Shown piece after piece: positions 1,275 through 64,000 of a stretch of DNA of 64,000 nucleotides. The DNA is taken from contig OY761614.1 in the NCBI GenBank assembly GCA_963664825.1, forward strand, positions 1,920,001 to 1,984,000. Reading direction: 5' to 3'. The notes below the pieces were generated by a model, which saw only the letters and a program-made list of their open reading frames with translations, was not told the origin of the DNA and did no database searches. Positions within the stretch are counted from its first letter, which is position 1; every line of letters starts with the position of its first letter. Origin of the DNA: an uncultured Holophaga sp. (lineage in GTDB: Bacteria > Acidobacteriota > Holophagae > Holophagales > Holophagaceae). Made by a program: the position numbers and the translations under genes.

Positions 1275-1361
1275 AATGTCCGGGTGAAATGGGAAATATG
1301 AATTTCTTCACTTTCGCATCCAACACCGCTGATGGCCCTCTTTTGGGTCGAGGAGCGTGAT

Positions 1362-3706: not shown

Positions 3707-3743
3707 TTATCGTACTATATAACAAATAGTAAGGAATAGATGT

Positions 3744-4712: not shown

Positions 4713-4817
4713 TTTGTGGTGAAGGTGTTCATTGATCTTACGAAACTATAACCTAGTAAGATAATGATCCGGGGGCATGTGGAATGGCCTCCGGAATAAG
4801 AACAGGCAGTTTGTATC

Positions 4818-7548: not shown

Positions 7549-7556
7549 AAAAATAA

Positions 7557-9416: not shown

Positions 9417-9740
9417 CAGTGTAATTCCTTTTGCGATTGTGTTTCTGTTTTAATGCTAAATTGCTTAGGTATGGAATGGCATTCATGAATGCGATTGTGT
9501 CAATTTAAACTGCCAATATTTAAACAAGTCTATCTTGCACCGCCCATATTTTCTGGGCTCCCTACTTCGACTAGCTGCTCAAGGCTCTCCATGTTGCTTA
9601 CTCGAACCAACCCTTCCCGGCCTCCGAACCCGCCTAAGCTCAGGAGGCACCGTGAACTCGAATCTTGGACAGAGACGACCCAAGGTCTATCCACGCTCAT
9701 AAGTGCGAGGGGGTGAATCGATACCATACGATTTCATGTC

Positions 9741-45271: not shown

Positions 45272-45313
45272 GATGCCTCCAAATTTTTGGGATGATGAGG
45301 CAGAGTGGCTGGT

Positions 45314-45332
45314 ATGGACACAGGATGTCAAT
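45314..45332. promoter_or_regulatory. Candidate WYL operator overlapping a TTGACA -35 box
   Basis: ATGGACA-cagga-TGTCAAT inverted repeat, 6 of 7 bp matched. Confidence 0.5.
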
Positions 45333-45416
45333 GGAGGGATGCGGAAAAAAGAGAGGGAGCGGATTGCACCTTGCCTCACAAGGCGATGCAAGGTGCAATG
45401 GAAGGTGGAGGACTCC

Positions 45417-50411: not shown

Positions 50412-51098
50412 ATGCCCCAGGCCCAAAAAACGATCCTCCAGACGCGCTCCCTGCGGGAGCAGGTCTATGACTATCTGCGCGGGGAGATGGCCAGCGGCGG
50501 GATGCAGCCGGGCTCCTTCCTGGACCTCAACGCCCTGGCCCTGCATCTGGGCATCAGTCGCACGCCCCTGCGGGATGCCCTGCTCCAGCTGGAGGTCGAA
50601 GGCTTCGTGGAGATCCTGCCCCGGCGGGGTTTCCGGTTGAAGCCTCTGGGTCTCGACGAGATCCGCAATATCTACCAGATCGTGGGGGCCCTGGAATCCG
50701 CTGCCCTGGCCACGGCGGGGCCCCGGCTGGGGAAGGCTGGGTTCGCGTCCATGAAGGCCGAGAATAAGGCCATGAGCCAGGCCATCCGGGCCGATGACTA
50801 CGAGGCCTTCTTCGCCCATAATCTCGCCTTCCACGGGATCTTCCTGGAGGCCAGCGGGAACCCGCGCATGGCTTCCCTGGTGCATTCACTGAAACAGCGT
50901 CTCTACGATTGGCCGCGCCGCAAGGTCTTCCTGAAGAGCTGGGAGGCCCGCTCGATCGAGGAACATGCCCGCCTCCTGGCGCTGATGGAGAAGGGGAAGT
51001 TCGAGGAGGCCGCGGCCTACCACCGGGATGTGCACTGGTCCTTCGAGGTGCAGGAGCCCTTCGTGCGGGTGTATTACCTGACGGACCGGGCCGAGTGA
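50412..51098 (+). CDS. GntR (FCD) transcriptional regulator
   Basis: LGISRTPLRDAL..LE.EG; N.AFH; EEH. Confidence 0.93.
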   Translation: MPQAQKTILQTRSLREQVYDYLRGEMASGGMQPGSFLDLNALALHLGISRTPLRDALLQLEVEGFVEILPRRGFRLKPLGLDEIRNIYQIVGALESAALATAGPRLGKAGFASMKAENKAMSQAIRADDYEAFFAHNLAFHGIFLEASGNPRMASLVHSLKQRLYDWPRRKVFLKSWEARSIEEHARLLALMEKGKFEEAAAYHRDVHWSFEVQEPFVRVYYLTDRAE

Positions 51099-51119
51099 AG
51101 GGGAGCCTCCACTCAGGAT

Positions 51120-52763
51120 CTACTCCCGGTTGTTCGTGTACTTCGTGATGAGCTTTTCCCGCAGCCGGATGTAGAGGCCCGGCACCTGTTTCTGGATCCC
51201 GACGCAGAATTCGGTGAGGAATTTTTTCGCGGCCGCCGGGTCCTTGCGATGCAGCTCCAGGGCCTCGGCCTCCAGGGCGGGCAGCCGCTCCTGGATGCTC
51301 CGCTCGAAGGGATCCCGGGCCTCGCGCACATCCCGGATGGCGTCCTGGAAGCGCAGGTTGGCCAGGTTGTCCACGAAGTCGATGGTCCATCGCGCGCTGG
51401 CGTCGCTGTAGGCCTCGGGATCATAGATCTGGTAGCTGGGAGCCGTGTCCGTGACGCCCGCATACATGGGCACGTAGGGGCTGATGGCCGGGTTGTCCAA
51501 GTAGACCCAGTAGAGGCCTCCGATGCTGTCGGGCAGCCAGCCCCGCAGCTGGCAGACCATGCCGTAGTGGTCGCGATGGCGAGCCACCGGTCGGCGGTAG
51601 GTGATCTTGAGGAGGGCCCTCAGGTCCTTGCCGGGAAAGGGCGTGGCCAGGGGGCTTCGCGTCAGGCCACCCTTGGCATCCGCGACCTGCCAGGCGGGGT
51701 CCGAGGCCATATCGTAGATGCTGCCTTCCATGGTGGAGCGCTGGAAGGCGATGACATCCTGCACGGAGATCTTCTTCTCGGGTCTGAGGGAGAAGGGATA
51801 GATGGCGAGGGGTTCCACCGTCTGGAAGTAGGGACTGATGCCCTTGAGGGGCTCGGTTGGGTTGAGCCTGCGATCGGGCCAGGGGTGGCCGTTGGGCTTG
51901 AGGTTCGGCGCGAAGGTGGTGGCGAAGAGCCAGAAACGGCCCGTGGCGAATTCCTCGGGCAGGGGCGTGTAGGCGTCCTGCCAGATGAAGGGACGTCCCG
52001 CTTTGGGGTCGAACCAGCCCCGGTCAATGGCCTCCTGCTGGTAGTTCTTGGAGACGAGGAAGCGGGAGGCATCCTTCGGATCGATGCCCTTGATGATGCT
52101 CCAGTTGGGGATGAGCAGGGCTTCGTCATCGGGAATGCGCTGGGCGGCCCAGATGGCGCCGGGCTTGCCCCCGGCCTTCTTCCAGCCTGGTCCCACCGAG
52201 AAGACCTCGAAGACCCAGGCCTCCTCGGTGTCGCCGATGACGAGGGATTCCGAACCATCCGGAGAGGGGAGGAAGCCGTAGGTCTCCATGAGCTGGCCCA
52301 CGAGGCGGACCGCATCCTTGGCCTTGCGGCAGCGCTGGAGGGCGAAGACCTGGGCCTGTTCGATGGTCATGATCTGTTCGCCCGCGCCCTTGGCCACGGC
52401 GAGCTCGGGGCGCTGGCTCGTGGTGCTCTCGACGATGGCGAGCTGGTACTCGTTCATGTGGGAATAGGCGGACTGGAAGTAGGTGTAGGTTCGGGCTACC
52501 TGGGGTATGTAGCCGAGGATCTCCCCGGGACTGGCCAGGGGCCGGGAGGGATCCTGGAGGCCCCAGCCCACGGGAGCCTTCTCGCCGGCCCCGAAGGCAC
52601 GCCCTGGCACGACCCGAATGCGCGAATCGGGGCCACAGTCCGTGTGGGAGAGAATCACGGAGCCGTCCACCGTGGCCTTCTTGCCCGCGGCGATGACGGT
52701 GCAGGGCTGCAGGGTGAGGGACGCCACCAGCCATGTGAAGAGGATTACCAGGGGCTTTTTCAT
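51120..52763 (-). CDS. C69 family dipeptidase, exported
   Basis: Signal peptide then CTVIAAGKKATVDGSV; MNEYQLAI.EST; WAAQRIPDD. Confidence 0.88.
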   Translation of the reverse strand: MKKPLVILFTWLVASLTLQPCTVIAAGKKATVDGSVILSHTDCGPDSRIRVVPGRAFGAGEKAPVGWGLQDPSRPLASPGEILGYIPQVARTYTYFQSAYSHMNEYQLAIVESTTSQRPELAVAKGAGEQIMTIEQAQVFALQRCRKAKDAVRLVGQLMETYGFLPSPDGSESLVIGDTEEAWVFEVFSVGPGWKKAGGKPGAIWAAQRIPDDEALLIPNWSIIKGIDPKDASRFLVSKNYQQEAIDRGWFDPKAGRPFIWQDAYTPLPEEFATGRFWLFATTFAPNLKPNGHPWPDRRLNPTEPLKGISPYFQTVEPLAIYPFSLRPEKKISVQDVIAFQRSTMEGSIYDMASDPAWQVADAKGGLTRSPLATPFPGKDLRALLKITYRRPVARHRDHYGMVCQLRGWLPDSIGGLYWVYLDNPAISPYVPMYAGVTDTAPSYQIYDPEAYSDASARWTIDFVDNLANLRFQDAIRDVREARDPFERSIQERLPALEAEALELHRKDPAAAKKFLTEFCVGIQKQVPGLYIRLREKLITKYTNNRE

Positions 52764-52839
52764 GGGGTTCACCAAGTTCTTTTGGGTTCCAGGGCTGCGA
52801 AGGGGAAGTCTCCCACGGACCAGGGCTTCTAATGAAACA

Positions 52840-52878
52840 TTGTCCACAAATTTGCGGAACTGATATATTAGATATCCA
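52840..52878 (+). promoter_or_regulatory. Putative promoter/operator of the hyp operon
   Basis: TTGTCC-18 nt-TATATT with extended -10 TG; overlapping GATAT repeats. Confidence 0.5.
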
Positions 52879-52898
52879 GAGTTTTTTGGAGGAGCCCC

Positions 52899-54287
52899 AT
52901 GTTTCCGAGCCAAACCTACCTGGAACGCCGCGCGCGCCTGCGGGCCCAGATGCAGGGCCAGAAGGGCCTCCTGCTCTTCCTGGGCAACGAGGATTCGCCC
53001 ATGAACTATGGGGACAACTGCTTCCATTTCCGCCAGGACAGCAGCTTCCTCTATTTCCTGGGGGTGGACCAGCCGGGCTGGGCGGGCCTCCTGGATCTGG
53101 ACGCGGGCACCACGACCCTCTTCGCCGAGGATCTCTCTCTGGATGCCATCGTGTGGATGGGGCCCCAGCCCACGGTGGCCGAACGGGCCTCCCGGGCGGG
53201 CATCCTGGATACGGCTCCGGCGGCCCGACTGGAGGAGATCCTGGCCCAGGCCAAGGCTCAAGGCCGGCCCATCCACTTCCTGCCCCCCTACCGCCCCGAG
53301 AACCGCCTGCGCCTGCTGGATCTCCTGGGCATTCCTCCGGCCGCCCAGGCCTCCCGGGCTTCGCTGGCCTTCCTCCAAGCCGTCATCGCCCTGCGCGTCC
53401 ACAAGGGCCCAGAAGAGGTGCTCGAGATCGAGAAGGCCGTGGGCACTTCCCTGGAGATGCACTTGGCCGCCATGCGCATGGCCCGCCCAGGCCTGAAGGA
53501 ATCCGATATCGCCGCCCGGGTCTCGGAGATCGCCCAGGCCGCCGGGGGGCAGATCGCCTTCCCCGTCATCGCCACCGTGCATGGGGAGACGCTGCACAAC
53601 CACTTCCATGGCCATGGCCTGGAACCGGGCCAGCTCTTTCTCCTGGATGCGGGGGCCGAAGGGGAATCCCACTATGCCGGGGACCTCACGAGCACCTTCC
53701 CCGTGGACCCCACCTTCCCGTCCCGCCAGCGCGACGTCTACGAGATCGTCCTGGCCGCCCATCTGGCGGCCGTGGGCGCCCTGAAGCCGGGCGTTAACTT
53801 CCGCGACGTGCATCTCCTGGCCTGCCGCACCCTGGCCGAAGGACTCAAGGGCCTCGGGCTCATGAAGGGGGATCTGGATGAGGCCGTGGCCCTGGGCGCC
53901 CACGCCATGTTCTTCCAGTGCGGCCTGGGCCACATGATGGGCCTGGATGTCCACGATATGGAGGATCTGGGCGAAGTATGGGTGGGCTACGAAGGGCAGG
54001 CCAAGAGCACCCAGTTCGGCCTGAAATCCCTGAGGCTGGCCCGGGCACTGGAGCCGGGCTTCGTCTTCACGGTGGAACCCGGCCTCTACTTCATTCCCGA
54101 ATTGATGGATCGCTGGAAGGCCGAAGGGAAGTTCCTGGATTTCATCGACTACGAGCGGCTCCAGGCCTACCGAACTTTCGGTGGCATCCGCATCGAAGAG
54201 GACTTCCTGGTGACCTCCGAAGGCGCGCGCATGCTGGGGCCCCGCAAGCCCCGCAGCGCCGCCGAGGTGGAGGCTCTCCGTGGGTGA
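52899..54287 (+). CDS. pepP: Xaa-Pro aminopeptidase/prolidase (M24B)
   Basis: FRQDSSF.Y, DAG, GDLT, GHMMGLDVHD, TVEPG, GIRIEED. Confidence 0.9.
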   Translation: MFPSQTYLERRARLRAQMQGQKGLLLFLGNEDSPMNYGDNCFHFRQDSSFLYFLGVDQPGWAGLLDLDAGTTTLFAEDLSLDAIVWMGPQPTVAERASRAGILDTAPAARLEEILAQAKAQGRPIHFLPPYRPENRLRLLDLLGIPPAAQASRASLAFLQAVIALRVHKGPEEVLEIEKAVGTSLEMHLAAMRMARPGLKESDIAARVSEIAQAAGGQIAFPVIATVHGETLHNHFHGHGLEPGQLFLLDAGAEGESHYAGDLTSTFPVDPTFPSRQRDVYEIVLAAHLAAVGALKPGVNFRDVHLLACRTLAEGLKGLGLMKGDLDEAVALGAHAMFFQCGLGHMMGLDVHDMEDLGEVWVGYEGQAKSTQFGLKSLRLARALEPGFVFTVEPGLYFIPELMDRWKAEGKFLDFIDYERLQAYRTFGGIRIEEDFLVTSEGARMLGPRKPRSAAEVEALRG

Positions 54288-55179
54288 AGGGATCCCAGCC
54301 CGGCCCGGGGAATGCGCTGGCCTCGTCTTCCATATCCAGCGCTTCTCCCTGCAGGATGGGCCGGGACTGCGCACGACGGTCTTCCTCAAGGGATGTCCCC
54401 TGGCCTGCGCCTGGTGTCACAACCCGGAGAGCCAATCCCCCGTTCCCGAACTGCTGACGCTAGAAGGCCGCTGCATCCATTGCGGAGCCTGCACGGCGGC
54501 CTGCGGGAATGCTCCCTGCCAACTCTGCGGCGCCTGCGTGGAGGCCTGTCCCACGGGGGCCCGGCGGATGGTGGGCCGCAAGATGGGAGGGGAGGAAGTC
54601 CTGAAGGAAGCCCTGCGGGACCGCATCTTCTTCGATCAATCCGGCGGCGGCGTGACCTTCTCGGGAGGCGAGCCCCTGATGCAGGCGGACTTCGTATGCG
54701 AAATGGCCGAGGCCCTGAAGGCCTGCGGCGTGCATACGGCCCTGGACACCTGTGGCTTCGCAAGCGAGGAGGATCTGCTGAGGGTGGCTGCCCGGGTGGA
54801 TCTGGTGCTCTTCGACCTGAAGCTCATGGACGAGGCCCGGAACCGGGAGGCCACTGGGGCCTCGAACGCGCCCATCCTGGCCAATCTGGAGGCCCTCTCC
54901 AGGGTCCATTCCGCCATCTGGATCCGCGTGCCGATCATCCCCGGTCTCAATGATGACGACGACAACCTGGAGGCCACGGCCCTCCTGGCGGCCAAGACGC
55001 CCGGCGTCCGGCGGATGGATCTGCTCCCCTATCACGCCACCGGCGCCGTGAAGTTCGCTCGCCTCGGCAAGACCTATGCCCTGGACTCGGTGGAGCCACC
55101 CTCCCCCGGGCGCATGGAAGAGATCGCGCGGCGCTTCCGCGCCCATGGCATCGACGTGAACCTCGGAGGCCGCTCATGA
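54280..55179 (+). CDS. Glycyl-radical activating enzyme (HypD-AE)
   Basis: DGPGLRT, CPLACAWCHNPE, two ferredoxin-like CxxCxxCxxxC motifs, SGGEP, LLPYH. Confidence 0.95.
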   Translation: MGEGIPARPGECAGLVFHIQRFSLQDGPGLRTTVFLKGCPLACAWCHNPESQSPVPELLTLEGRCIHCGACTAACGNAPCQLCGACVEACPTGARRMVGRKMGGEEVLKEALRDRIFFDQSGGGVTFSGGEPLMQADFVCEMAEALKACGVHTALDTCGFASEEDLLRVAARVDLVLFDLKLMDEARNREATGASNAPILANLEALSRVHSAIWIRVPIIPGLNDDDDNLEATALLAAKTPGVRRMDLLPYHATGAVKFARLGKTYALDSVEPPSPGRMEEIARRFRAHGIDVNLGGRS

Positions 55180-57536
55180 ACCCACGCACTTTCCAGCTGC
55201 GCCAGGAGAGCCTGGACGCCGTTCCCACCCTCAGCCTGGAGCGGGCCCAGTTGATGACTGCCTTCTACAAGGAACACCTGGGCCGCCATTCCGTGCCCGT
55301 GATGCGGGCCCTGGCCTTCCACCATCTCTGCGAGCACAAGACGCTCTGGATGGGCGAAGGGGAGCTGATCGTGGGCGAGCGGGGGCCCAGGCCCAAGGCC
55401 GTGCCCACCTATCCCGAACTCACCTGCCACAGCGTGGAGGATCTGCGCATCCTGGATTCGCGTTCCAAGACCAGCTACAGAGTAAACGCCGCGATGATCG
55501 AGGCCTACGAGAAGGAGATCATCCCCTACTGGCGGGGGCGGAGCATGAGGGACCAGATATTTCAGGAGCTCTCTCCTGAATGGCAGACGGCCTACCACGC
55601 GGGCGTCTTCACGGAGTTCATGGAACAGCGCGCCCCGGGCCACACGGTGCTGGATGGCAAGATCTACGGCAAGGGCATGCGGGATTTCCTGGTCGATATC
55701 GCCCGCTCGGAAGCGGCCCTGGATTTTGAGCGGGCCCCGGAGGCCCTGGATAAGCGCGAGCAGCTGAAGGCCATGGAGATCGCCTGCGTGGCCCTCATCC
55801 GCTTCGCTGAGCGCCATGCGGAGCTGGCGGAAACACTGGCCCTGGCTTCAGATGATCCTGCACGACAGGAGGAATTGCGCCGCATCGCAGCGACCTGTCG
55901 CCGCGTGCCCGCCCACGCGCCTCGGGACTTCCAGGAGGCGCTGCAGTACTACTGGTTCTGCCACCTGGGGGTGATCACCGAACTCAACGGCTGGGACGCC
56001 TTCAGCCCGGGCCACCTGGACCAGCACCTCTGGCCCTTCTACCAGCGGGGTCTCCAAGACGGCACGCTCAGTCGGGAGAAGGCCAAGGAGCTGCTGGAGT
56101 GCTTCTTCGTGAAGTTCAATAATCACACGGCCCCCCCCAAGGTGGGCGTCACGGCGGCCGAGAGCGGCACCTACACGGACTTCGCCAACCTCAACCTAGG
56201 GGGGCTTCGGCCGGATGGTTCGGATGGCAGCAACGATGTGACGCACCTCCTGCTGGAGATCATCGACGAGATGCATCTGCTCCAGCCCAGCAGCAATGTG
56301 CAGGTCTCCCGCAAGACGCCGGACGCCGTGCTGAAGCACGCCCTGCGCGTGATCCGGAAGGGCTACGGATTCCCCTCCCTCTTCAACGCCGATTCGGTGG
56401 TGGAGGAACAGCTCCGTCAGGGCAAGACCCTGGAGGACGCCCGGGAGGGCGGCTGTTCGGGATGTGTGGAGGTGGGAGCCTTCGGCAAGGAGGCCTACAT
56501 CCTCACGGGCTACTTCAATTTGGTGAAGATGCTCGAACTGGCCCTCCACGATGGCGTGGATCCCCGCACAGGCAAGCAGCTGGGGCCCCGCACGGGCGCG
56601 GCCTCGGAACTTGGGGACTTCGACGCCCTCTTCAAGGCCTTCGAGGCGCAGACTCGGCATTTTCTGGATATCAAGATCCGGGGCAACCAGCTCATCGAGC
56701 GCCTCTTCGCCACCCGCATGCCCGTGCCCTTCCTATCGGTCCTCACCGACGACTGCATCGCCAAGGGCCGGGATTACAACGCGGGCGGGGCGAGGTACAA
56801 CAACACCTTCATCCAGGCCGTGGGCATCGGCAGCCTGGCCGATAGCCTTTCGGCCCTCCAGGAACTGGTCTTCGAGCAGGGGGCCCTCGATCTACCCGGA
56901 ATGGTGCAGGCTCTCGATGCGGATTTCGCGGAACGCGAAATCCTGCGCCAGCGCCTCCTCAACAAGACCCACAAATACGGCAACGACGACGACTACGCCG
57001 ACGACCTGATGCTGCGGGCCTTCCACTTCCTCTTCGAGAATATCGATGACCGTCCCAACGGCAAGGGGGGCGCCTACCGGCTGGAGATGCTGCCCACCAC
57101 ATGCCATGTCTACTTCGGCCAGGTGTGCCAGGCCTCCTCCGATGGCCGGAAGGCCGGCGAGCCCCTCTCGGAAGGCATCAGCCCCGTGCAGGGGGCCGAT
57201 CGCTGCGGTCCCACGGCCGTGCTGCAATCCGCCGGGAAGATGGATCACGTGAAGACCGGCGGGACGCTGTTGAACATGAAGTTCACGCCGGGACTCCTGG
57301 AGGGAGACGCGGGCATCGAGGGCCTGCATCATCTGGTGCGGACCTATTTCAAGCTGGATGGCCACCACGTGCAGTTCAACGTGGTCAGCGTAGGCACCCT
57401 GCGGGAGGCCCAGGCCCACCCCGAGGCCCACCGGGATCTCATCGTGCGCGTGGCGGGCTATTCGGATTACTTCCTGGATTGCTCCCTGGAACTCCAGAAG
57501 GAGATCATCCACCGCACCGAACACCATGCTTTCTAG
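55176..57536 (+). CDS. hypD: trans-4-hydroxy-L-proline dehydratase (glycyl radical enzyme)
   Basis: FTEFMEQRAPGHT, WDAF, APPKVG...ES.TYTDFAN, SGCVE, LTGY, MLPTTCH, RVAGYS match motifs recalled for C. difficile HypD. Confidence 0.9.
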   Translation: MNPRTFQLRQESLDAVPTLSLERAQLMTAFYKEHLGRHSVPVMRALAFHHLCEHKTLWMGEGELIVGERGPRPKAVPTYPELTCHSVEDLRILDSRSKTSYRVNAAMIEAYEKEIIPYWRGRSMRDQIFQELSPEWQTAYHAGVFTEFMEQRAPGHTVLDGKIYGKGMRDFLVDIARSEAALDFERAPEALDKREQLKAMEIACVALIRFAERHAELAETLALASDDPARQEELRRIAATCRRVPAHAPRDFQEALQYYWFCHLGVITELNGWDAFSPGHLDQHLWPFYQRGLQDGTLSREKAKELLECFFVKFNNHTAPPKVGVTAAESGTYTDFANLNLGGLRPDGSDGSNDVTHLLLEIIDEMHLLQPSSNVQVSRKTPDAVLKHALRVIRKGYGFPSLFNADSVVEEQLRQGKTLEDAREGGCSGCVEVGAFGKEAYILTGYFNLVKMLELALHDGVDPRTGKQLGPRTGAASELGDFDALFKAFEAQTRHFLDIKIRGNQLIERLFATRMPVPFLSVLTDDCIAKGRDYNAGGARYNNTFIQAVGIGSLADSLSALQELVFEQGALDLPGMVQALDADFAEREILRQRLLNKTHKYGNDDDYADDLMLRAFHFLFENIDDRPNGKGGAYRLEMLPTTCHVYFGQVCQASSDGRKAGEPLSEGISPVQGADRCGPTAVLQSAGKMDHVKTGGTLLNMKFTPGLLEGDAGIEGLHHLVRTYFKLDGHHVQFNVVSVGTLREAQAHPEAHRDLIVRVAGYSDYFLDCSLELQKEIIHRTEHHAF

Positions 57537-59844
57537 CGCCATCCTAGCGGCGGGCCTCCTCGTCCCTTCGCTTCCCGCCATTCCTGAGGTCGCGAGGCCC
57601 CTGCCGCTCTCCGCTGTGCGGGTCACGGGAGGTCCCCTGAAACGGGCCCAGGACCTGGATGCTGCCTACCTCCTGAAGCTAGAGCCCGATCGCATGCTCG
57701 CCCTCTTTCGCCAGGAGGCGGGCCTCAAGCCCCGCGCTCTCCCCTACGGCGGATGGGACGGTCCCGGCAAGAACCTCACGGGCCACATCCTCGGTCACTA
57801 CCTTTCGGCCGTGAGCTTCATGGGGGAGGCCACCGGTGATCCCCGTTTCAAGGCCCGTGCGGATTACATCCTGAAGGAACTCAAGGAGGTCCAGGAGACC
57901 CAGGGGGATGGCTACCTGGGCGCACTGGAACATGGCAAGGAGGCTTTCTGGGCCCTGGCGAAGGGGGACATCCGCACCACAGGCTTCGATCTGAACGGGC
58001 TGTGGTCTCCCTGGTACGTGCTGCACAAAGTTTTTGCAGGACTCCGGGATGCCCATCGGCACGGGGGCAGCCCCCTGGCCCTGCAACTGGAGACGAACTT
58101 CGCTGCCTGGACGGAGGGAATCCTCTCTGGTCTCTCTCCCTCCCAGATCCAGTCCATGTTGGCGACCGAGTTCGGCGGCATGGGTGAAGTGCTGGTCGAC
58201 CTCTATGCGGATACGGGGAACCCCCGTTGGCTGGTCCTTTCACGCAAGTTCGAGCACAGCGCCGTGCTCGATCCCTTGAAAAGGCACCAGGACAGGCTCG
58301 CCGGACTGCATGGCAACACCCAGGTGCCCAAGCTCCTGGGGAACCTGGCGCGGTACGCCTGTGTGGGCGACACCGGCGACGGATTCGCGGCGGGATTCTT
58401 CTGGGACACGGTGGTCCAGCGCCACACCTGGGCCACGGGGGGACACGGACGGAACGAGTATTTCTTCGACCCAGGCAGGATGTCGGAGAACGTGGAGGGG
58501 CGCACGGCCGAGACTTGCAATGTCTACAACATGCTCAAGATGGCTCGGAGGCTCTTCGCGCTGCGCCGGGATGCGCCCTACGCGGAGTTCCAGGAACGGG
58601 CCCTCTTCAACCACATCCTGGCCTCCATGGATCCCATGGACGGGCGCACCTGCTACATGGTGCCCGTGGGGAGCGGAGTGCAACACGAATACCAGGACAT
58701 GGATAAGGACTTCACCTGCTGCGTGGGATCGGGCATGGAGAGCCACGCCCTGCACGGCGCTGGCATCTACCATGAGTCCGGCGACCGACTGTGGGTGAAC
58801 CTCTTCGTTCCCTCCACGGCCCGCTGGGAGGCCGCGGGTCTCGATCTTGCCCAGGAGACGGACCTGCCCCTGGGCGATTCCATGCGGTTGAGCCTCACCC
58901 TACGCGAACCCCGCGCCTTCACGCTGGCCCTGCGGCGGCCCGCCTGGGCCCTGGAGGGATTCACCGTGAAGGTCAATGGGGAATCCGTCTCGATCCTCCC
59001 GGCGCCGGGCTCCTACGTGGAACTGGCCCGCACCTGGAAGACGGGAGATCGCGTGGAATTGAGCCTGCCCAAGACCCTGCGCCTGGAGCCCCTAGCGGAT
59101 GATCCGAGCCGTGCGGCCATCCTGTGGGGCCCCCTGGTGCTGGCCGCGGACCTGGGACCCGAAGAGGGCTTCGAGGCATGGCGAGAGGGTGCCGTGCCCG
59201 CGATGGTGGTGCCCGAGGGCATGGCCCCCTGGGCGTGGCTCAGGCCCGTCCTTGGGCAGCCCGGACACTTCCGCACCGGGGGCGCGGGGCGGCCGCGGGA
59301 TGTGGAATTCTCTCCCTTCTTTGCTCTGCATCGCCGTTCCTACTCCGTCTATACCGGAATCTTCACGCCCGGCGCATGGGCGAAGCGCTCCGAATCCCTC
59401 TGCCTCGAGAGGGAACGCCAGGGGAGGCTCCAGGCGGCCACCGTGGCCTTCGTACAGCCGGGTGAGATGCAGCCCGAGCGAGATTTCGGCTTTCGGGGCG
59501 AGGGTCTTGTGCTGGATGAATCCAGGATCCAGGGCCGCGCCTTCCGCCGCAGCAGCAAGTGGTTCTCCTTTACGATGCCCGTGGATTCCTCCCGTCCCAT
59601 GTCGCTGGCCGTGACCTTCCTTCAGGACGAATGGCGCAAACGCACCCTGGATATCCGCGTGGAGGGCCGGAAGATCGGCGAGCAGACCCTGGATCGGGGT
59701 GGCACACCCCGTTTTTTCGATGCGGTCTACGCGATTCCCGAAGAGCTCACCCGTGGCCGGACTTCCGTGACGGTGCGCTTCGAGGCCACCCAGCAGAACG
59801 AGACCCCCGCCGTCTTCGGCGTCCGGACCTTCCGGACCCACTGA
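57526..59844 (+). CDS. Beta-L-arabinofuranosidase, GH146/GH127 (HypBA1-like), exported
   Basis: GHILGHYLSA, HGNTQVPK, ETCNVYNMLK and FTCCVG (Zn-Cys site); signal peptide. Confidence 0.88.
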   Translation: MLSSAILAAGLLVPSLPAIPEVARPLPLSAVRVTGGPLKRAQDLDAAYLLKLEPDRMLALFRQEAGLKPRALPYGGWDGPGKNLTGHILGHYLSAVSFMGEATGDPRFKARADYILKELKEVQETQGDGYLGALEHGKEAFWALAKGDIRTTGFDLNGLWSPWYVLHKVFAGLRDAHRHGGSPLALQLETNFAAWTEGILSGLSPSQIQSMLATEFGGMGEVLVDLYADTGNPRWLVLSRKFEHSAVLDPLKRHQDRLAGLHGNTQVPKLLGNLARYACVGDTGDGFAAGFFWDTVVQRHTWATGGHGRNEYFFDPGRMSENVEGRTAETCNVYNMLKMARRLFALRRDAPYAEFQERALFNHILASMDPMDGRTCYMVPVGSGVQHEYQDMDKDFTCCVGSGMESHALHGAGIYHESGDRLWVNLFVPSTARWEAAGLDLAQETDLPLGDSMRLSLTLREPRAFTLALRRPAWALEGFTVKVNGESVSILPAPGSYVELARTWKTGDRVELSLPKTLRLEPLADDPSRAAILWGPLVLAADLGPEEGFEAWREGAVPAMVVPEGMAPWAWLRPVLGQPGHFRTGGAGRPRDVEFSPFFALHRRSYSVYTGIFTPGAWAKRSESLCLERERQGRLQAATVAFVQPGEMQPERDFGFRGEGLVLDESRIQGRAFRRSSKWFSFTMPVDSSRPMSLAVTFLQDEWRKRTLDIRVEGRKIGEQTLDRGGTPRFFDAVYAIPEELTRGRTSVTVRFEATQQNETPAVFGVRTFRTH

Positions 59845-59863
59845 ATCCCTTCCCGGAGAAACC

Positions 59864-62098
59864 ATGTTCTCAAGAGCCCTGCTCATCCCTTGCCTTGTGG
59901 GCCTCCTCCTCCCCGCCCAGGGAACTCGGGCCGACTACGAGCGTGCCGCTCGCATGAAGGAACTGACCAGGACGGAGCTCTCCCGCGCCCAGCTCCGGCC
60001 CACCTTCCTGGAAGATGGCGCCTCCTTCTGGTACCGCAAGGATGATCCCGAGGGCCGAAAGGCCTGGATTCGGGTGTCCCTGGATGGCCGGAAGCGGCCC
60101 GCCTTCGATCATGCGCGTCTGGCCGGGAGTCTCGCCAAGGTGACGGGCAAGGCCGTGGAAGCGGGCAAACTTCCTATCGAGGAGCTGAGCTTCCTGGAGG
60201 GCGGCAAGCACCTGCTTTTCCGGACGGAAGAGGGCTGGTGGAGCTTCGAGTCGAAGACGGGCGCCGTGGCCAAGGCTCTGGCTCCCAAGGAACAGGCCCC
60301 TCCCCGGGGCGAGTATGACGACCCGGCCCCCCGGCGAACCCTGGTGCCCCTGCGCAGTCCGGATGGCCGGTACGCGGCCCAGATGCAGGATTCCAATATC
60401 GTGGTGCGCTCCGCCTCGGGAAAGGAGATCTTCCGCACCACGGACGGCGATTCCTCCGATCCCTATACAGGCGCCCTGGACTGGAGCCCCGACGGCCGGA
60501 AGCTGGTGGCCCAGCGATCCACGGTGGTGCCCATCCACCGGGTGACCTTCGTGGAATCCTCCCCCAAGGACCAGCTGGAACCCAAGGTCCACGTCAACGA
60601 TTACGCCAAGCCCGGCGATCCCCTTCCCATTGTGCGTCCCGTGCTGCTCGACCCGGAGAAGGGGCGCGTCGCGCCTGCGGATGCGAACCTGGCGCCCACA
60701 CCCTACTTCAACTATGGCGAAGACCTGGATATCCACTGGGCCAAGGATTCCAGCCGCTTCTTCTACGTCTATAACCAGCGGGGGCACCAGGCCCTGAAGG
60801 TGATCGCGGTGGATGCCGCCACGGGGGCGTCCAGGGCCGTGGTGGATGATCGCAGCAAGACCTTCATCGACTATTCCGGCAAGCAGTTCCTGGAGTATTT
60901 GGACGACACGAATGAACTGGTGTGGATGAGCGAACGCAATGGTTGGAACCATCTCTACCTAGTGGATGCCAGGACAGGTGCTGTCAAGAACCCCATCACC
61001 CAGGGCGAATGGGTCGTGCGCCGGGTGCTGAACGTGGATCCCAAGGCCCGCCAGATCCTCTTCATGGCCGGGGGCATCGTCCCGGGCCAGGACCCCTACT
61101 ACCTCCATCTGGTGAAGGTGAATTTCGATGGCACGGGCCTGAAGGTGCTCACGGAGGGGGACGGCACGCATTCGGTCACCCTCAACAAGGACCGCAGCGC
61201 CTTCGTGGACCTGTGGTCCCGGGTGGACCAGGCCCCGGTGGCCGAACTGCGCCGGACCGTCGATGGCGCGCGGGTGGCGGAGCTGGAGCGCTGGGACACC
61301 GTTTCCCTGCGGAAGGCCGGATGGAAACTGCCCGAGCGCTTCACGGCCAAGGCCCGGGACGGCAAGACCGATATTTATGGCGTCATCTACCGCCCCTCGA
61401 ACTATGATCCGGCCAAGAAGTATCCCGTCATCGAGTACATCTACGCGGGGCCCCAGGATGCCTTCGTGCCCAAGGCCTTCCAGCAGCGGACCATGTTCCC
61501 GGAACTCGTGGAACTGGGCTTCATCCTCGTCTCCATCGATGGCATGGGCACGAGCCAGCGCTCCAAGGCCTTCCACGACGTGTGCTTCAAGAACCTGGGC
61601 GATGGGGGCTTCCCCGACCGCATCCTCTGGATGAAGGCCGCCGCGGTCCAGGATCCCGCCATGGATCTCTCCCGGGTGGGCATCTTCGGCGGCAGCGCCG
61701 GGGGGCAGGACGCCCTGAGGGCCCTGCTGGGTTTCGGCGATTTCTACAAGGCGGCCGTGGCGGACTGCGGATGTCACGACAATCGCATGGACAAGGTCTG
61801 GTGGAACGAACTGTGGATGGGCTGGCCCGTCGGCCCCCACTACGCCGAACAGAGCAATGTCACCAACGCGCCGAAGCTCAAGGGCGATCTGCTCCTGCTG
61901 GTGGGCGAGATGGACACCAACGTGGACCCGGCCTCCACCCTGCAGGTGGTGAATGCCCTGGTGAAGGCGGATCGGGATTTCGAGATGCTGGTGGTGCCCG
62001 GCTCCGACCACGGCACCATGCGCATCCCCCACGTGGAGCGCCGCCTGAAGGACTTCTTCGTGCGCCATCTGCTGGGCGTTGCGCCCAGATCCAAGTAG
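59864..62098 (+). CDS. S9 dipeptidyl-peptidase IV-like protein, exported
   Basis: DPP-IV-type propeller motifs; YAGPQ, GGSAGG nucleophile, D.NV, DHG. Confidence 0.9.
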   Translation: MFSRALLIPCLVGLLLPAQGTRADYERAARMKELTRTELSRAQLRPTFLEDGASFWYRKDDPEGRKAWIRVSLDGRKRPAFDHARLAGSLAKVTGKAVEAGKLPIEELSFLEGGKHLLFRTEEGWWSFESKTGAVAKALAPKEQAPPRGEYDDPAPRRTLVPLRSPDGRYAAQMQDSNIVVRSASGKEIFRTTDGDSSDPYTGALDWSPDGRKLVAQRSTVVPIHRVTFVESSPKDQLEPKVHVNDYAKPGDPLPIVRPVLLDPEKGRVAPADANLAPTPYFNYGEDLDIHWAKDSSRFFYVYNQRGHQALKVIAVDAATGASRAVVDDRSKTFIDYSGKQFLEYLDDTNELVWMSERNGWNHLYLVDARTGAVKNPITQGEWVVRRVLNVDPKARQILFMAGGIVPGQDPYYLHLVKVNFDGTGLKVLTEGDGTHSVTLNKDRSAFVDLWSRVDQAPVAELRRTVDGARVAELERWDTVSLRKAGWKLPERFTAKARDGKTDIYGVIYRPSNYDPAKKYPVIEYIYAGPQDAFVPKAFQQRTMFPELVELGFILVSIDGMGTSQRSKAFHDVCFKNLGDGGFPDRILWMKAAAVQDPAMDLSRVGIFGGSAGGQDALRALLGFGDFYKAAVADCGCHDNRMDKVWWNELWMGWPVGPHYAEQSNVTNAPKLKGDLLLLVGEMDTNVDPASTLQVVNALVKADRDFEMLVVPGSDHGTMRIPHVERRLKDFFVRHLLGVAPRSK

Positions 62099-62112
62099 TT
62101 CCGGGAGGTACC

Positions 62113-63696
62113 ATGCGAAACCAGGTCCCATGCCTCGTCGCCCTGCTGGCCGCAAGTCTCCAGGCTCAGACGCCCCAGGTGACGGCCCCCTCGGAGGCCC
62201 TCCTGGCCCGGGTGGAGGCGAAGAATCAGGCGGCCGTGCGCGCCTTCTACCACAAGACCCTGGATATCCAGGGCCTGCCCGTGCTCGCCTCGGGAAAGGT
62301 CGCCGACGAGGCTCTGTTGCGCACTTTTGAACTGGTGAGCCATGTGCTGGCGGGACGGCCCGATGTCATTAAGGCCATGGCTGAATTCGGCACCCGCCTG
62401 CTCATCATCGGCAGGGACGAGGTCTACACCGATCTGCCGGAGTACCGGGACACGCCCGACCCCGCCTTCTGGAACGAGCGGGTGCGCGGGACGGGAGGGG
62501 ACGACGTCACCAGCTTCGGGGAGGAGAATCTCCTCAACCTGCCCGGCGACCGCTACGACGATATGAGCGTGGGGGTCCACGAGTTCTCCCACACCATCGA
62601 CGCCACCCTCACCCGCATGGACCCCGCCTGGCAGAAGGAACTGGTGTCCGTCTTCCGCCACGCCCGGAAGGCCCGGCTCTATGAACACGCATACGCCGCG
62701 AGCAACCCCACCGAGTACTGGGCCGAGGCCGTCACCATGTACTTCGACTGCGAGCGGCCCAATAACTGGAACCACGCCCCCATCGCCACCCGCGAGGCGC
62801 TCCAGCGCTACGACCCGGAGATGTTCGCCTTCATCCGGAAGACCCTCCGCCTCGAGCCCGCCCAGGGCTGGCGCCTCAGGCCCCTGCATCGGCAGCCTTC
62901 CGTCATGGCGCCTCCCAAGAGCTTCGGGGCCGATGCCGCCTACATGAAATTCACCTACGCCCGGGAGTTTCCCGTGCTGGGTACGGCCCGGGTGAGCGAG
63001 GCGGCCCTGCTCAAGGCCAACGACACCATTCGCAAGCTCTTCGCCTACCGCCACGATATCCTCAAGGGCCTCATCGCCCAGGGCGTGCGCCTGGTGGTCC
63101 TGGGCCAGGGCGAGTGCCTGCGCGATCTGCCGGAATTCCGGGAGAACCTGCACAGGGCCTCAGCCGACGATCTCCGCTTCCTGGACTATGATCCCGCCCG
63201 CAAATTGATGGTGGTGCCCGAGGAGAACGTCCTGGGCCTGCCCGGGGATCCCTTCGCCGGGGAATGCGCGACCATCGTGGCCTTCGCCAGGGCCATGGAT
63301 GAGGTCCTCGGCCAGCGCCCCGTGGACCTGGCCTTCGAGCGGAAGGCCGAACACCAGCAGTACGAACTCGGCGTGCGCCGCATGGATGTGCGCTTCGACC
63401 GGGCCCTGAAGGCCGCCTTCTCCCGGGCCTCCCGCAAGGGCCTCTGGAAGGGCACGCCCGCCGCCCGGGAGCCCACGGGTTACTGGGCCGCAGGCCTCAC
63501 CGCCTACTTCGACGCCGGTGGGGATGGCCAGGCTCCGGTGGGCGCCGTCCGCCCCATCACCACCCGGGAGGCCCTGAAGGCCTATGATCCCGGGCTCTAC
63601 CGGATCGTGGACGATACAATGGCCTACCGAGAACACGTGGACTGGCGCTTTAAACCAGCAAACGCGGGCCAACCCTCCTTGGCGGCGCAGCCATGA
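62113..63696 (+). CDS. Exported tandem-domain zinc metallopeptidase (ATLF/PPEP-like)
   Basis: Signal peptide; domain 1 has HEFSH and EYWAE; domain 2 is homologous but lacks both. Confidence 0.75.
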   Translation: MRNQVPCLVALLAASLQAQTPQVTAPSEALLARVEAKNQAAVRAFYHKTLDIQGLPVLASGKVADEALLRTFELVSHVLAGRPDVIKAMAEFGTRLLIIGRDEVYTDLPEYRDTPDPAFWNERVRGTGGDDVTSFGEENLLNLPGDRYDDMSVGVHEFSHTIDATLTRMDPAWQKELVSVFRHARKARLYEHAYAASNPTEYWAEAVTMYFDCERPNNWNHAPIATREALQRYDPEMFAFIRKTLRLEPAQGWRLRPLHRQPSVMAPPKSFGADAAYMKFTYAREFPVLGTARVSEAALLKANDTIRKLFAYRHDILKGLIAQGVRLVVLGQGECLRDLPEFRENLHRASADDLRFLDYDPARKLMVVPEENVLGLPGDPFAGECATIVAFARAMDEVLGQRPVDLAFERKAEHQQYELGVRRMDVRFDRALKAAFSRASRKGLWKGTPAAREPTGYWAAGLTAYFDAGGDGQAPVGAVRPITTREALKAYDPGLYRIVDDTMAYREHVDWRFKPANAGQPSLAAQP

Positions 63697-64000
63697 CCCG
63701 TCGGGGCATCCTCCGAAACATCTGTGCCTTGCTCCTCGGCGCGCTCTTGCCCTTGTGCGGAGCGCCTGCCTTCGAGGCGTCGAACAGCGTGGGCGGAATA
63801 TGGGTCTTCTCTGGGGCGCCGCCCTTCCCGGGGCTGCGCATGATGCAGATCGCCGTGAAGGCTGGAAGGGCCACGGGCACACTCACCACGGATTGGTACG
63901 GGCCCATGCCCATGCACGACCTCTGCATCCGGGGGAAGGCGGCCTCCTTCGGGATCCATAACGGCAACCCGCGTCTTCCCATGAAGACTTGGATGACCAC
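63693..64000 (+). CDS. Exported protein, truncated by the window end
   Basis: ATGA overlap with upstream stop; MTRRGILRNICALLLGALLPLCGAPA signal-like start; frame open to the end. Confidence 0.65.
   Translation, partial: MTRRGILRNICALLLGALLPLCGAPAFEASNSVGGIWVFSGAPPFPGLRMMQIAVKAGRATGTLTTDWYGPMPMHDLCIRGKAASFGIHNGNPRLPMKTWMT

Follow-up and report, generated by a model that had tools for sequence, protein, structure and literature searches.

In a 64,000-nucleotide stretch of DNA from an uncultured Holophaga sp. (the whole of which we call the window), hydroxyproline (Hyp) breakdown is joined to sugar-removing and proline-cutting enzymes, an arrangement that resembles a single pathway by which hydroxyproline-rich plant cell-wall glycoproteins could be used as food. 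Our preferred reading, which we hold with moderate confidence, is that seven genes (pepP, hypD activase, hypD, GH146, S9, tandem M34 and GH27) make up an operon and act as a single unit, one that would deglycosylate and cut Hyp-rich plant glycopeptides and then catabolise the hydroxyproline. This draws on the gene families and their catalytic motifs, the layout of the operon, the recurrence of its downstream genes with GH127-clan genes in relatives, and their co-occurrence with HypD; weighing against it are the lack of a conserved fusion, the identity of the nearest solved relative of the GH146 protein (BT0349) and the absence of a transporter gene from the operon. A literature search found no description of HypD coupled to a β-L-arabinofuranosidase, and an earlier note on this DNA had likewise known of none.

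Organisation and putative control of the operon

All of the genes listed in the earlier note were recovered at or close to where it had placed them (Table 1), as were their junctions; from pepP to GH27, neighbouring genes overlap at four junctions (by 8, 4, 11 and 4 bp) and stand 19 and 14 bp apart at the other two, with the 11-bp overlap falling between the GH146 start and the hypD stop. The ‘further’ gene that it had seen after the HEXXH peptidase is indeed present on the same strand, and can now be assigned to GH27; it continues past the window to window-equivalent position 65231 (L003 693-2231), where the same-strand run ends, since an aminotransferase gene on the opposite strand comes next. 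The ATG of the M34 gene is preceded by GGAGG, and the codon at 62095 is GTA, not a start. HypD and PF07944 each have a single match in the genome, and these are the two neighbouring genes. The host is an anaerobic, soil-type bacterium.

Table 1. Features of the hypD locus, in window coordinates.
Feature	Position	Strand	Evidence or remark
GntR/FCD regulator	50412-51098	+	PF00392 52 bits; PF07729 75.5 bits
C69 dipeptidase	51120-52763	-	PF03577 138.8 bits; divergent from pepP
Promoter-like site	52840-52869	+	TTGTCC-18-TATATT with TG
Candidate operator CTGATATATTAGATATC	52860-52876	+	Overlaps promoter-like site
pepP, M24B Xaa-Pro peptidase (PepP/PepQ-like)	52899-54287	+	AMP_N 83.1 bits; Peptidase_M24 153.3 bits
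Glycyl-radical enzyme activase (radical SAM)	54280-55179	+	TIGR02494 333.1 bits (cut-off 174.35)
hypD, trans-4-hydroxy-L-proline dehydratase	55176-57536	+	NF043068 (NCBIfam equivalog) 1196.8 bits (cut-off 1100)
GH146 β-L-arabinofuranosidase homolog, BT0349-like	57526-59844	+	PF07944 356.3 bits; PF20736; PF20620
S9 peptidase, DPP-IV-type propeller	59864-62098	+	DPPIV_N 136.7 bits; Peptidase_S9 136.2 bits
Tandem M34-like metallopeptidase (HEXXH)	62113-63696	+	ATLF Pfam model 32.2 bits
GH27 α-galactosidase-family gene, start	63693-64000 (window end)	+	Melibiase_2 232.7 bits

Transcription of the operon probably starts at a single promoter in the 135 bp that separate pepP from the divergent C69 gene. 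A promoter-like site is found upstream of pepP only, with none before the GH146-S9-M34-GH27 genes (hereafter the ‘cassette’), and internal terminators are in no excess over shuffled sequences. The candidate operator is the genome’s only site with at most one mismatch, the runner-up having 3; G002, G019 and G043 keep its motif ahead of pepP or the activase, and G007 has a degenerate version. As a GntR homolog adjoins activase/hypD in 8 of the 14 hypD loci examined in relatives, we suggest that the neighbouring GntR/FCD gene is the probable local repressor of the operon, probably exerting control through this single conserved candidate operator.

The division into exported and cytoplasmic enzymes envisaged in the earlier note is supported by the N-termini of all but one protein: PepP, the activase and HypD carry no signal peptide, which places PepP in the cytoplasm, and C69, S9, M34 and GH27 are signal-bearing (the C69 N-terminus reads MKKPLVILFTWLVASLTLQPC, with a signal-like segment ending ...LQPC). 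Export of GH146 is uncertain, because its hydrophobic N-terminus does not have the charged n-region found in the canonical signal peptides of its homologs.

Hydroxyproline catabolism

HypD matches the C. difficile enzyme (6VXC) at 952 bits, compared with 486 for glycerol dehydratase and 383 for HplG. The best specific model for its partner is that of the T4HPD activase (326.2 bits, under its cut-off of 425), and the PepP protein falls under both NCBIfam cut-offs (PepP, 164.8 against 465; PepQ, 144.4 against 339). Neither proC nor proline dehydrogenase (Pro_dh) has a match in the genome, and a stand-alone P5C dehydrogenase is encoded elsewhere in it (TIGR01236, 759 bits; cut-off 613.6), so Hyp is probably converted to glutamate.

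Glycosidases and the likely substrate

The earlier note had labelled the PF07944 protein ‘GH146/127’. Its standing as a β-L-arabinofuranosidase homolog is upheld and the GH127 identity is rejected, as the protein scores 439 bits with BT0349 (5OPJ) and 41 with HypBA1 (3WKW). The alignment with 5OPJ (E 3.6e-130) takes in residues 28-768, including the ETCN, CCVGSG and NEYF (Zn/catalytic) motifs, and the C-terminal domain is DUF6805. GH27 matches plant α-galactosidases (6F4C, E 3e-100; 1UAS, E 6e-96) and also the β-L-arabinopyranosidase 3A21 (E 4e-72); no Pfam model matches its first 156 aa.

GH43, GH51 and AraA have no match in the genome, which means that the genome encodes no known route to complete deglycosylation of extensin or to the use of arabinose and that, with neither α-L-arabinofuranosidase family (GH43, GH51) found, Ara4-Hyp caps would not be removable by known enzymes. 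The same absences make it more plausible that a lone GH146 unmasks peptides than that it harvests polysaccharide.

The genes might instead form one functional unit directed at something other than an extensin-type Hyp-arabinoside (arabinogalactan-protein (AGP) fragments, pectic-arabinan-linked peptides or other Pro-rich glycopeptides), with GH146 taking off terminal β-1,3- or β-1,2-Araf caps, and GH27 α-Gal or β-L-Arap caps. GH146 activities are described on both kinds of substrate: XeHypBA1 and Bll4HypBA1 act on Araf-β-Hyp, while BT0349, to which our protein is nearest, comes from an RG-I/arabinan locus and acts on arabinan-derived oligosaccharides and β-1,2-arabinobiose (PMC10850190). Bll3HypBA1, also of GH146, is described as β-1,3-specific on AGP and arabinan, and this reading is also favoured by the match of GH27 to 3A21 and by the Gal-α-1,3 and Arap-β-1,3 caps described on gum arabic AGP (PMC10850190). 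We nonetheless consider such a substrate unlikely, as no galactanase was found in the genome or operon, which also hold no GH43 or GH51, and as sister loci pair GH51, GH146, GH127 and α-galactosidase-like genes without galactan-degrading families, a set that better matches extensin sugars.

Predicted secreted peptidases

The best PDB matches of the S9 peptidase are bacterial DPP4s (E ~1e-48) and its GGSAGG, Asp and His catalytic positions align, in keeping with its earlier description as DPP-IV-like; the DPP-IV double-Glu segment, however, falls in a gap. The C69 protein scores 133.8 bits against NF033678, under the cut-off of 250, and its gene recurs in G007 (84% identity) and is missing from the loci of G002 and G019.

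As modelled, the M34 protein has a Pro-Pro-endopeptidase-like fold: the top Foldseek matches of its AF2 model (pLDDT 84.2) are PPEP-1, -2 and -3, at E ~1e-4 and a target-normalised TM of 0.54-0.66. In sequence it matches PPEP-2 (6FPC) at E 8e-4, with the HEXXH, downstream Tyr and Glu aligned. Its 527 aa comprise two M34-like halves, 28-30% identical through internal duplication, the C-terminal one without HEXXH. Residues H156, E157, H160, Y194 and E201 are invariant in 20/20 homologs, a conservation from which the N-terminal half is predicted to be active. The family is large and unnamed, with 2524 proteins at E<=1e-5 among 8000 candidates scored.

The cassette in relatives

Physical fusion of hypD to the cassette is rare, and probably recent. 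In the same-genus genomes G007 and G002, unrelated genes and no cassette come after pepP-activase-hypD, and the region downstream of hypD varies among these two, G019 and G000; G019 has the order hypD-S9-tandem M34 (gap ~20 nt) and no glycosidase, and no GH146 or GH27 relics were seen in G019 or G007. Elsewhere the cassette lies away from hypD (G024, G067, G077, G091, G216 and G350), and in relatives it recurs inside larger loci with GH51, GH127, α-galactosidase-like genes and a peptide transporter. In L023, L025 and L114, genes for an outer-membrane barrel protein, GH51, GH146 (67-69% identical), GH127, tandem M34, Melibiase/NPCBM, DUF5695, aldose epimerase, LacI and a POT transporter all lie on one strand; L024 has GH51, M24, GH127, S9, tandem M34 and GH27, and G350 has GH127, DUF5695, S9, epimerase and tandem M34. 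Of 87 loci anchored on tandem M34, 24 include S9, 11 include GH127-clan, GH51 or α-galactosidase-like genes, 6 include POT and 2 include HypD.

Independent gene arrangements speak for the same coupling. G013 has an OppBCDF-prolidase-peptide-binding-protein-GH127 operon. In G311, G347 and G503 (the last examined by tblastn only), the ~15 kb after activase-hypD contain a peptidase gene (M28 in G311, S15 X-Pro dipeptidyl peptidase in G347), a triad of isomerase, kinase and aldolase genes, and a pair of GH127 genes.

Every genome with a tandem M34 gene also has HypD, be it in the class (6/6, against 31/157 overall; hypergeometric 3.9e-5), in the phylum sample (5/5, against 77/401; 2.3e-4) or among all Acidobacteriota genomes found to carry one (8/8), and in the 401-genome sample a GH127-clan gene is present in 45/77 HypD genomes against 47/324 others (odds ratio 8.3), these statistics being phylogeny-uncorrected and ignoring shared ancestry and lifestyle. 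The association of hypD with GH127/GH146 genes anticipated in the earlier note is seen in cassette recurrence and genome content, but not as general adjacency: the two are adjacent in 1/9 of the HypD and GH127-clan genomes in the class, and are far apart or on separate contigs in G067, G077, G091, G024, G013, G028, G155 and G154.

A mobile cassette that happened to land in the variable stretch after hypD, with each module keeping its own substrates, would account for the differing content downstream of hypD and for the six genomes in which the cassette stands apart. We regard this as improbable, given the 11-bp GH146/hypD overlap and the lack of a promoter-like site ahead of the cassette; moreover, a diverged strain (run X6, from a different study) retains the hypD-GH146 junction on a ~93% identical contig, G019 independently has S9 and tandem M34 at this position, a metagenome locus (L085; HypD-PutA-...-Melibiase-M34x2-...-POT) ties HypD-PutA to the cassette, and all eight tandem M34 genomes have HypD. 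Least probable of all is that the target is collagen, gelatin or other non-glycosylated Hyp/Pro-rich peptides, with both glycosidases as irrelevant passengers: PepP, S9, M34, the dipeptidase and HypD would suffice for this, and G019 does without any glycosidase, yet tandem M34 recurs with glycosidase genes in the 11 loci counted above, HypD is associated with GH127-clan genes across the phylum sample, β-L-Araf is described in plant glycans (PMC10850190), and no collagenase family was found among the proteins annotated in the operon.

A model for glycopeptide use, and its relation to known systems

Returning to the single unit acting on extensin-type substrates, we infer the following order of events. 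Outside the cytoplasm, GH146 would take β-L-arabinofuranose, and GH27 α-galactose (or β-L-arabinopyranose), off fragments of plant or algal extensin-type hydroxyproline-rich glycoproteins; the PPEP-like M34 and S9 peptidases could then cleave the bared Pro/Hyp-rich backbone, and the C69 dipeptidase trim their products. Small peptides would enter via transporters encoded outside the operon (the genome has two POT loci), the M24B peptidase would liberate Hyp in the cytoplasm, HypD would dehydrate it to P5C, and the stand-alone P5C dehydrogenase would oxidise P5C to glutamate. The extensin/Hyp-rich glycoprotein degradation system proposed in the earlier note is partly supported, through its gene identities, cassette recurrence and HypD co-occurrence, and weakened by the missing GH43, GH51 and AraA, by the BT0349-like character of GH146, by the unaligned double-Glu motif of S9 and by a linkage poorly kept in relatives. 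The enzymes responsible for Hyp release from plant glycoproteins have been described as an open problem (PMC6219649).

The glycyl radical enzyme and activase pair is that of C. difficile; the clostridial system (Levin/Huang/Balskus), however, reduces P5C to proline by P5C reductase (PMC6219649), whereas here there is no proC beside hypD, and an Xaa-Pro peptidase, two glycosidases and two secreted peptidases flank it instead. PPEP-1, -2 and -3 (MEROPS M34) are the best structural matches of the tandem M34 protein, at only ~12-18% identity. The likeness of GH146 to BT0349 of Bacteroides thetaiotaomicron is full-length, including the C-terminal jelly-roll/DUF6805 region, but BT0349 belongs to a polysaccharide utilisation locus for pectin (RG-I), and our GH146 resides in a peptidase/HypD operon within a genome where no other arabinan-degrading family was found. 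Related in theme are hypBA1-hypBA2-hypAA of Bifidobacterium longum and XeHypBA1/BA2/AA of Xanthomonas euvesicatoria, where a clan GH-P cysteine β-L-arabinofuranosidase is likewise tied to the degradation of hydroxyproline-rich glycoproteins (PMC10850190; PMC6085000), and a prolyl oligopeptidase pseudogene adjoins the Xanthomonas cluster (PMC6085000). Those clusters harvest sugars and are not reported to be tied to Hyp catabolism (PMC10850190; PMC6085000); here, with no match to GH43 or AraA, the β-L-arabinofuranosidase homolog is accompanied by peptidases and HypD.

Architecture and proposed regulation of the hypD operon

The genome is 3.47 Mb in one contig (96.55% complete), and the window (C1:1920001-1984000) has a G+C content of 65%. 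Pfam and NCBIfam scans, start translations and a stretch past the window end together gave the map set out in the table below. All the genes listed in the earlier note are present; the same-strand run comprises seven in all, one more than could then be named, and the junctions are as the note had given them (overlaps of 8, 4, 11 and 4 bp; gaps of 19 and 14 bp); an aminotransferase gene on the opposite strand comes next after GH27. Signal peptides are present in the C69, S9, M34 and GH27 proteins and absent from PepP, the activase and HypD. No transporter gene lies within the operon; POT transporters are encoded at two loci elsewhere in the genome.

Coordinates of features in the window, elsewhere in the genome and in fetched loci (L-numbers)
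Feature	Sequence	Coordinates	Strand	Remark
C45-like ORF	window	45132-48593	+	up to 1153 aa
416-aa ORF	window	48940-50190	+	between C45-like gene and GntR
GntR/FCD regulator	window	50412-51098	+	
C69 dipeptidase	window	51120-52763	-	
Intergenic gap	window	52764-52898		135 bp
Promoter-like site	window	52840-52869		
Candidate operator	window	52860-52876		17 bases
M24B Xaa-Pro peptidase (pepP)	window	52899-54287	+	
Glycyl-radical activase	window	54280-55179	+	
hypD	window	55176-57536	+	
PF07944 glycosidase (GH146)	window	57526-59844	+	
Terminator-like hairpin	window	59695-59711	+	inside GH146 3' coding end
DPPIV_N/S9 peptidase	window	59864-62098	+	
HEXXH protein (tandem M34)	window	62113-63696	+	
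GH27 Melibiase_2 protein	window	63693 to window-equivalent 65231	+	
P5C dehydrogenase	G000:C1 (own genome)	1287942-1289573		TIGR01236; L109 943-2574
DUF5695	L023	14969-17755		
DUF5695	L082	1530-6650		
Single-domain M34 relative	L085	6229-6903	-	
Single-domain M34 relative	L103	5651-6403	+	
S9/FAD oxidoreductase region	L061	11723-14320	-	
S9/FAD oxidoreductase region	L061	16747-19379	-	
OppBCDF-prolidase-GH127 operon	L018 (G013)	759-9433	-	

Only one promoter-like site was found upstream of the run, and within the run the counts of terminator-like hairpins, and of extra or internal promoters, are not above those of shuffles. The -10 element is overlapped by a 17-base motif, CTGATATATTAGATATC, which occurs once in the genome; with a perfect CTGATATATCAG palindrome, it also precedes pepP or the activase gene in G002 (same genus), G019 (other genus) and G043 (another family), and as a degenerate copy in G007 (same genus). 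Of the 14 hypD loci retrieved from relatives, 8 have a GntR homolog adjoining activase/hypD, and we predict that a local GntR/FCD repressor acts on one operon, with the CTGATATATYAGATATC motif as the preferred candidate operator. A second palindrome, TTGTCCACAA at 52840, was rejected for this role, being absent upstream of pepP/activase in all 10 of the relatives' regions examined.

Upstream of GntR, a large ORF has a match to a C45/phospholipase-B-like Ntn-hydrolase region, and a weak one to an aminopeptidase-N-like stretch; the ORF lies directly upstream of GntR in G007, G002 and G019 too (66-75% identity), and may be part of the same peptide-degrading neighbourhood as the hypD operon. The 416-aa ORF has neither a Pfam or NCBIfam match nor a tblastn counterpart in those three loci, where the C45-like gene nearly adjoins GntR.

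Predicted activities of the encoded proteins

By equivalog score (NF043068, cut-off 1100: 1196.8 bits, and 1196.4 in the whole-genome search) and closest structure (C. difficile HypD, 6VXC, 952 bits), the glycyl radical enzyme is assigned as HypD, and would be predicted to dehydrate trans-4-hydroxyproline (Hyp) to pyrroline-5-carboxylate (P5C). It carries the PF01228 glycyl radical domain (122.9 bits), and its RVAGYS and SGCVE motifs align with 6VXC; we take the RVxG glycyl radical motif and the Cys loop (GCVE) to be the defining marks of the family. Glycerol dehydratase 1R8W scores 486 bits, and identity with the Hyp C-N lyase HplG (7VUA) was ruled out at 383 bits against 952 for HypD. The pepP product has AMP_N and M24 domains, and scores 164.8 bits as PepP (cut-off 465) and 144.4 as PepQ (cut-off 339).

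In the whole genome there is no match to proline dehydrogenase (Pro_dh, PF01619) or to proC (TIGR00112), which is hence not next to hypD. A dehydrogenase for P5C (L-glutamate gamma-semialdehyde) is encoded as a stand-alone gene (759 bits, cut-off 613.6). On this gene content P5C evidently comes from HypD and is likely to end up as glutamate. A genome with no proC match may make proline by another route, or need external proline or Hyp.

The S9 protein (DPPIV_N 136.7 bits, Peptidase_S9 136.2 bits) has its best PDB matches among bacterial DPP4 structures (E about 1e-48), and its GGSAGG motif, Asp and His, the Ser-Asp-His triad, align with 5YP1 and 2ECF. In DPP-IV a double-Glu motif anchors the substrate N-terminus; here the propeller alignment is weak, that segment is an alignment gap against 5YP1, and no invariant Glu-Glu pair was found across 11 cassette-type S9 proteins. 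Pfam gave no match to a VHL-beta (hydroxyproline-binding) domain in residues 1-160.

The HEXXH protein, of 527 aa, is internally duplicated, its halves being 28-30% identical, and we refer to it as the tandem M34 protein. All 20 homologs aligned share H156, E157, H160, Y194 and E201 in the N-terminal half, and the HEXXH, Tyr and Glu positions align with PPEP-2, the sole significant PDB sequence match (E 8e-4); the C-terminal half has no HEXXH. An AlphaFold model (pLDDT 84.2) suggests a PPEP-like fold, the best structural matches among those listed being PPEP-1, -2 and -3 (E 1e-4 to 8e-4). The family is unnamed and large (2524 proteins at E<=1e-5 among 8000 candidates scored), with protein atlas clusters that are unnamed or automatically named only. 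DPP-IV-like enzymes classically do not cleave before Pro, and a Pro-Pro-type endopeptidase would complement such an enzyme. Two homologs, P0081 (697 aa) and P0084 (602 aa), have a precomputed Peptidase_S9 Pfam hit, which could reflect either a fusion of S9 with M34 or the merging of separate gene calls. Two metagenome loci, L085 and L103, each have a single-domain M34 relative close to the tandem gene; these relatives are about 225-250 aa long and match ATLF/M90 weakly.

The PF07944 glycosidase of clan GH-P (catalytic and middle domains, 356.3 and 90.1 bits) had been put down as ‘GH146/127’; the GH127 label is dropped in favour of GH146, given 439 bits to BT0349 (5OPJ; E 3.6e-130, whole length) against 41 to HypBA1 (E 6e-10), with 184 to Bll3HypBA1. 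Its ETCN and CCVGSG motifs and the NEYF glutamate have aligned counterparts in BT0349, and presumably supply the catalytic Cys and Glu as well as the zinc-binding Cys3-Glu set. The N-terminus is hydrophobic, without the charged n-region seen in homologs, such that export is uncertain. PMC10850190 states the Cys3-Glu zinc site, and Araf-beta-Hyp specificity for some GH146 enzymes (XeHypBA1, Bll4HypBA1). The 3' coding end of the gene contains a strong hairpin that, with its T-run (CGGGGTGGCACACCCCG TTTTTT), resembles a terminator.

The GH27 protein has a Melibiase_2 catalytic domain (232.7 bits), and its closest structures are plant alpha-galactosidases (6F4C, E 3e-100; 1UAS, 6e-96; the beta-L-arabinopyranosidase 3A21 gives 4e-72); by domain and structure it is probably an alpha-galactosidase family member. 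The two glycosidases might be thought to serve sugar harvest; this is unlikely for a lone GH146 and GH27, since the whole genome returned no match to AraA_N or to the alpha-L-arabinofuranosidase families (PF04616, GH43; PF06964, GH51 C-domain). With GH43 and GH51 unmatched, no enzyme was found for taking off Ara4 caps.

A conserved core and a variable downstream region

HypD scores over the cut-off in 14 of 61 relatives, and PF07944 is matched in 7, both counts including the genome under study. In G007 the order is C45-like, GntR and C69, divergent from pepP, activase and hypD, and in G002 C45-like, GntR, pepP, activase, hypD; unrelated convergent genes follow hypD in both. In G019, pepP, activase and hypD are followed, after a gap of about 20 nt, by S9 and the tandem M34 gene, with neither gene nor relic of GH146 or GH27; no such relics were found in the G007 or G002 loci either. 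G024 has GH51, M24, GH127, S9, tandem M34 and GH27 on a contig other than that of its GntR-activase-hypD, and in G043 a distant S9 (26% identity) lies directly downstream of hypD. From these syntenies, pepP-activase-hypD with GntR forms a conserved core, the region after hypD being variable, and the four-gene cassette (GH146-S9-M34-GH27) in our genome is best read as a recent or strain-level arrangement. The linkage to which the earlier note had tied its proposal holds only in part among relatives, the fusion of hypD to the cassette not being kept even within the genus. A contig from a sequencing run of a different study, which differs at 76 of 1091 letters (about 93% identity), bridges the hypD-GH146 junction, so that this arrangement exists in at least one diverged population.

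Searches anchored on the tandem M34 protein gave 7 loci from a genome collection and 80 from a metagenome collection, many of the latter only 2-6 kb long. Among these 87 loci the neighbours include an S9 homolog in 24, a GH127-clan, GH51 or alpha-galactosidase-like protein in 11, DUF5695 in 10, POT in 6 and HypD in 2 (G019 and L085); of the 54 loci with at least 1.5 kb of upstream sequence, 16 have S9 immediately upstream in the same orientation. Many, planctomycete-type above all, are without glycosidase-, POT- or HypD-type neighbours, which makes the S9-tandem M34 pair the conserved core, with the glycosidase link confined to a subset. Within that subset, L023, L025 and L114 (of genome G091) share a one-strand locus of outer-membrane barrel protein, hypothetical protein, GH51, GH146 (67-69% identical to that of the window), GH127 and tandem M34, then Melibiase/NPCBM, DUF6144 and DUF5695; the run goes on in L023 and L025 to an aldose epimerase, LacI and a POT peptide transporter, and the L114 stretch ends within DUF5695. 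L085 starts with a HypD truncated by the edge of the locus; PutA, an aldolase, the single-domain M34, Melibiase/NPCBM and the tandem M34 come next, and the locus continues with an alpha/beta hydrolase, GH31, DUF885 and POT.

DUF5695 recurs beside tandem M34, S9 and GH127 (L023, L082, L112) and has no match among PDB sequences, hence no tie to GH121 or another known enzyme; recurrence and lack of a match together make it a candidate for a new type of enzyme in this pathway. VHL is a hydroxyproline-binding fold, and in the metagenome locus L061 the S9 beside tandem M34 and GH127 scores 30.5 bits (cut-off 21) for the VHL beta domain. Two FAD oxidoreductases (Pyr_redox_2, DAO) follow this S9 and could provide an oxidative Hyp route; a D-hydroxyproline dehydrogenase label for them was set aside, NCBIfam giving only weak soxA/ThiO-like matches.

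Association of HypD with clan GH-P genes

Across 157 genomes of the class, HypD is over the cut-off in 31 and the tandem M34 protein is found in 6, all 6 with HypD (hypergeometric 3.9e-5); in a phylum sample of 401 genomes, HypD exceeds the curated cut-off in 77, including 5 of the 5 with tandem M34 (2.3e-4), and a GH127-clan gene occurs in 45/77 HypD genomes against 47/324 others (odds ratio 8.3, Fisher p 2e-14), significances that are overstated because the tests ignore shared ancestry and lifestyle. GH127-clan genes occur in 10 genomes of the class, 8 of which have HypD over the cut-off; of the other two, G154 has HypD in two pieces and G022 (88% complete) none, its GH146 homolog belonging to a GH51-GH43-GH146-GH51-GH115 polysaccharide cluster with no peptidases.

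HypD and this clan are associated at genome level, and adjacency is rare: among the matches listed, HypD is no more than 20 kb from a PF07944 gene in at least 4 of the 77 HypD genomes (our own, G311, G347 and G503). Between hypD and GH127, G311 and G347 hold a peptidase (M28 in G311, an S15 X-Pro dipeptidyl peptidase in G347), an isomerase/class-II aldolase/FGGY kinase triad of araBAD or fucIKA type and a BNR/sortilin protein, along with two GH127. The three loci from another acidobacterial family (L115 of G311, L116 of G347, L117 of G503) have activase-hypD 11-15 kb from two GH127.

In G013, an operon encodes OppBCDF, a prolidase (Creatinase_N + M24), a family-5 peptide-binding protein and, last, GH127; G028 (L019) has the same order of M24, 552-aa ORF and GH127, as judged from tblastn and ORF sizes only. 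This genus carries HypD, and the operon has the look of a pathway that processes arabinosylated Hyp-peptides in the cytoplasm after their import.

Discussion

The most economical reading, and a plausible one, is that the operon works as one unit, taking Hyp-rich plant glycopeptides to free, dehydrated Hyp. Arabinose and galactose would be stripped from the glycopeptides, the Pro/Hyp backbone would then be cut, the pieces imported, and Hyp freed and finally dehydrated. As for the anaerobic extensin/HRGP degradation system that the earlier note proposed, the gene observation is real and the interpretation remains a plausible proposal, helped by the comparative evidence. The locus brings known kinds of enzyme together in a new combination, along with an uncharacterised PPEP-like family; with deglycosylating and backbone-cutting candidates in a HypD operon, it offers a short, testable gene list for anaerobic extensin/HRGP breakdown.

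HypD is known as a gut-anaerobe enzyme acting on free hydroxyproline; its presence in 77/401 phylum genomes is far from that picture. We found no description of a coupling between HypD and an arabinofuranosidase in the open-access full text searched, in line with the earlier note. Huang et al. name the enzymes freeing Hyp from plant glycoproteins or collagen as an explicit future challenge (PMC6219649), and Nakamura et al. report a prolyl oligopeptidase pseudogene beside Xanthomonas Hyp-arabinoside genes (PMC6085000).

We also put forward a broader and distinctly tentative proposal, which as a whole we consider rather doubtful: that the tandem M34 protein and its frequent S9 partner might be the missing bacterial ‘extensinase’ of an undescribed soil Hyp pathway. 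In that proposal, the pair would be specialised for poly-hydroxyproline/Pro-Pro stretches impassable to DPP-IV-type enzymes, and joined to clan GH-P arabinofuranosidases and HypD, or to oxidative Hyp pathways in aerobes; the pathway would be widespread, taking plant cell-wall hydroxyproline-rich glycoproteins to glutamate, and the version in our genome would be the most compact, with one operon for the whole.

Beyond the single-unit reading of the operon, the locus points to a large uncharacterised family of PPEP-like peptidases, to an oxidative route from HypD to glutamate without proC, and to HypD in about a fifth of sampled Acidobacteriota genomes, strongly associated with beta-L-arabinofuranosidase-family genes; taken as a whole, they suggest a significant role for plant-derived Hyp as a substrate in anoxic soils and peats.

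Set against known systems, the operon differs in several respects. The clostridial hypD-proC unit has a P5C reductase gene beside hypD, whereas the window locus has none. PPEPs (M34), which cleave between two prolines, are single-domain proteins of about 200 aa, and we file the 527-aa tandem protein as M34/PPEP-like, rather than as a PPEP, on account of this difference. Finally, the HypBA-type Hyp-arabinoside system combines GH43 (HypAA), GH121 (HypBA2) and GH127/146 enzymes with an ABC transporter, and for its GH43 companion our genome gave no match.
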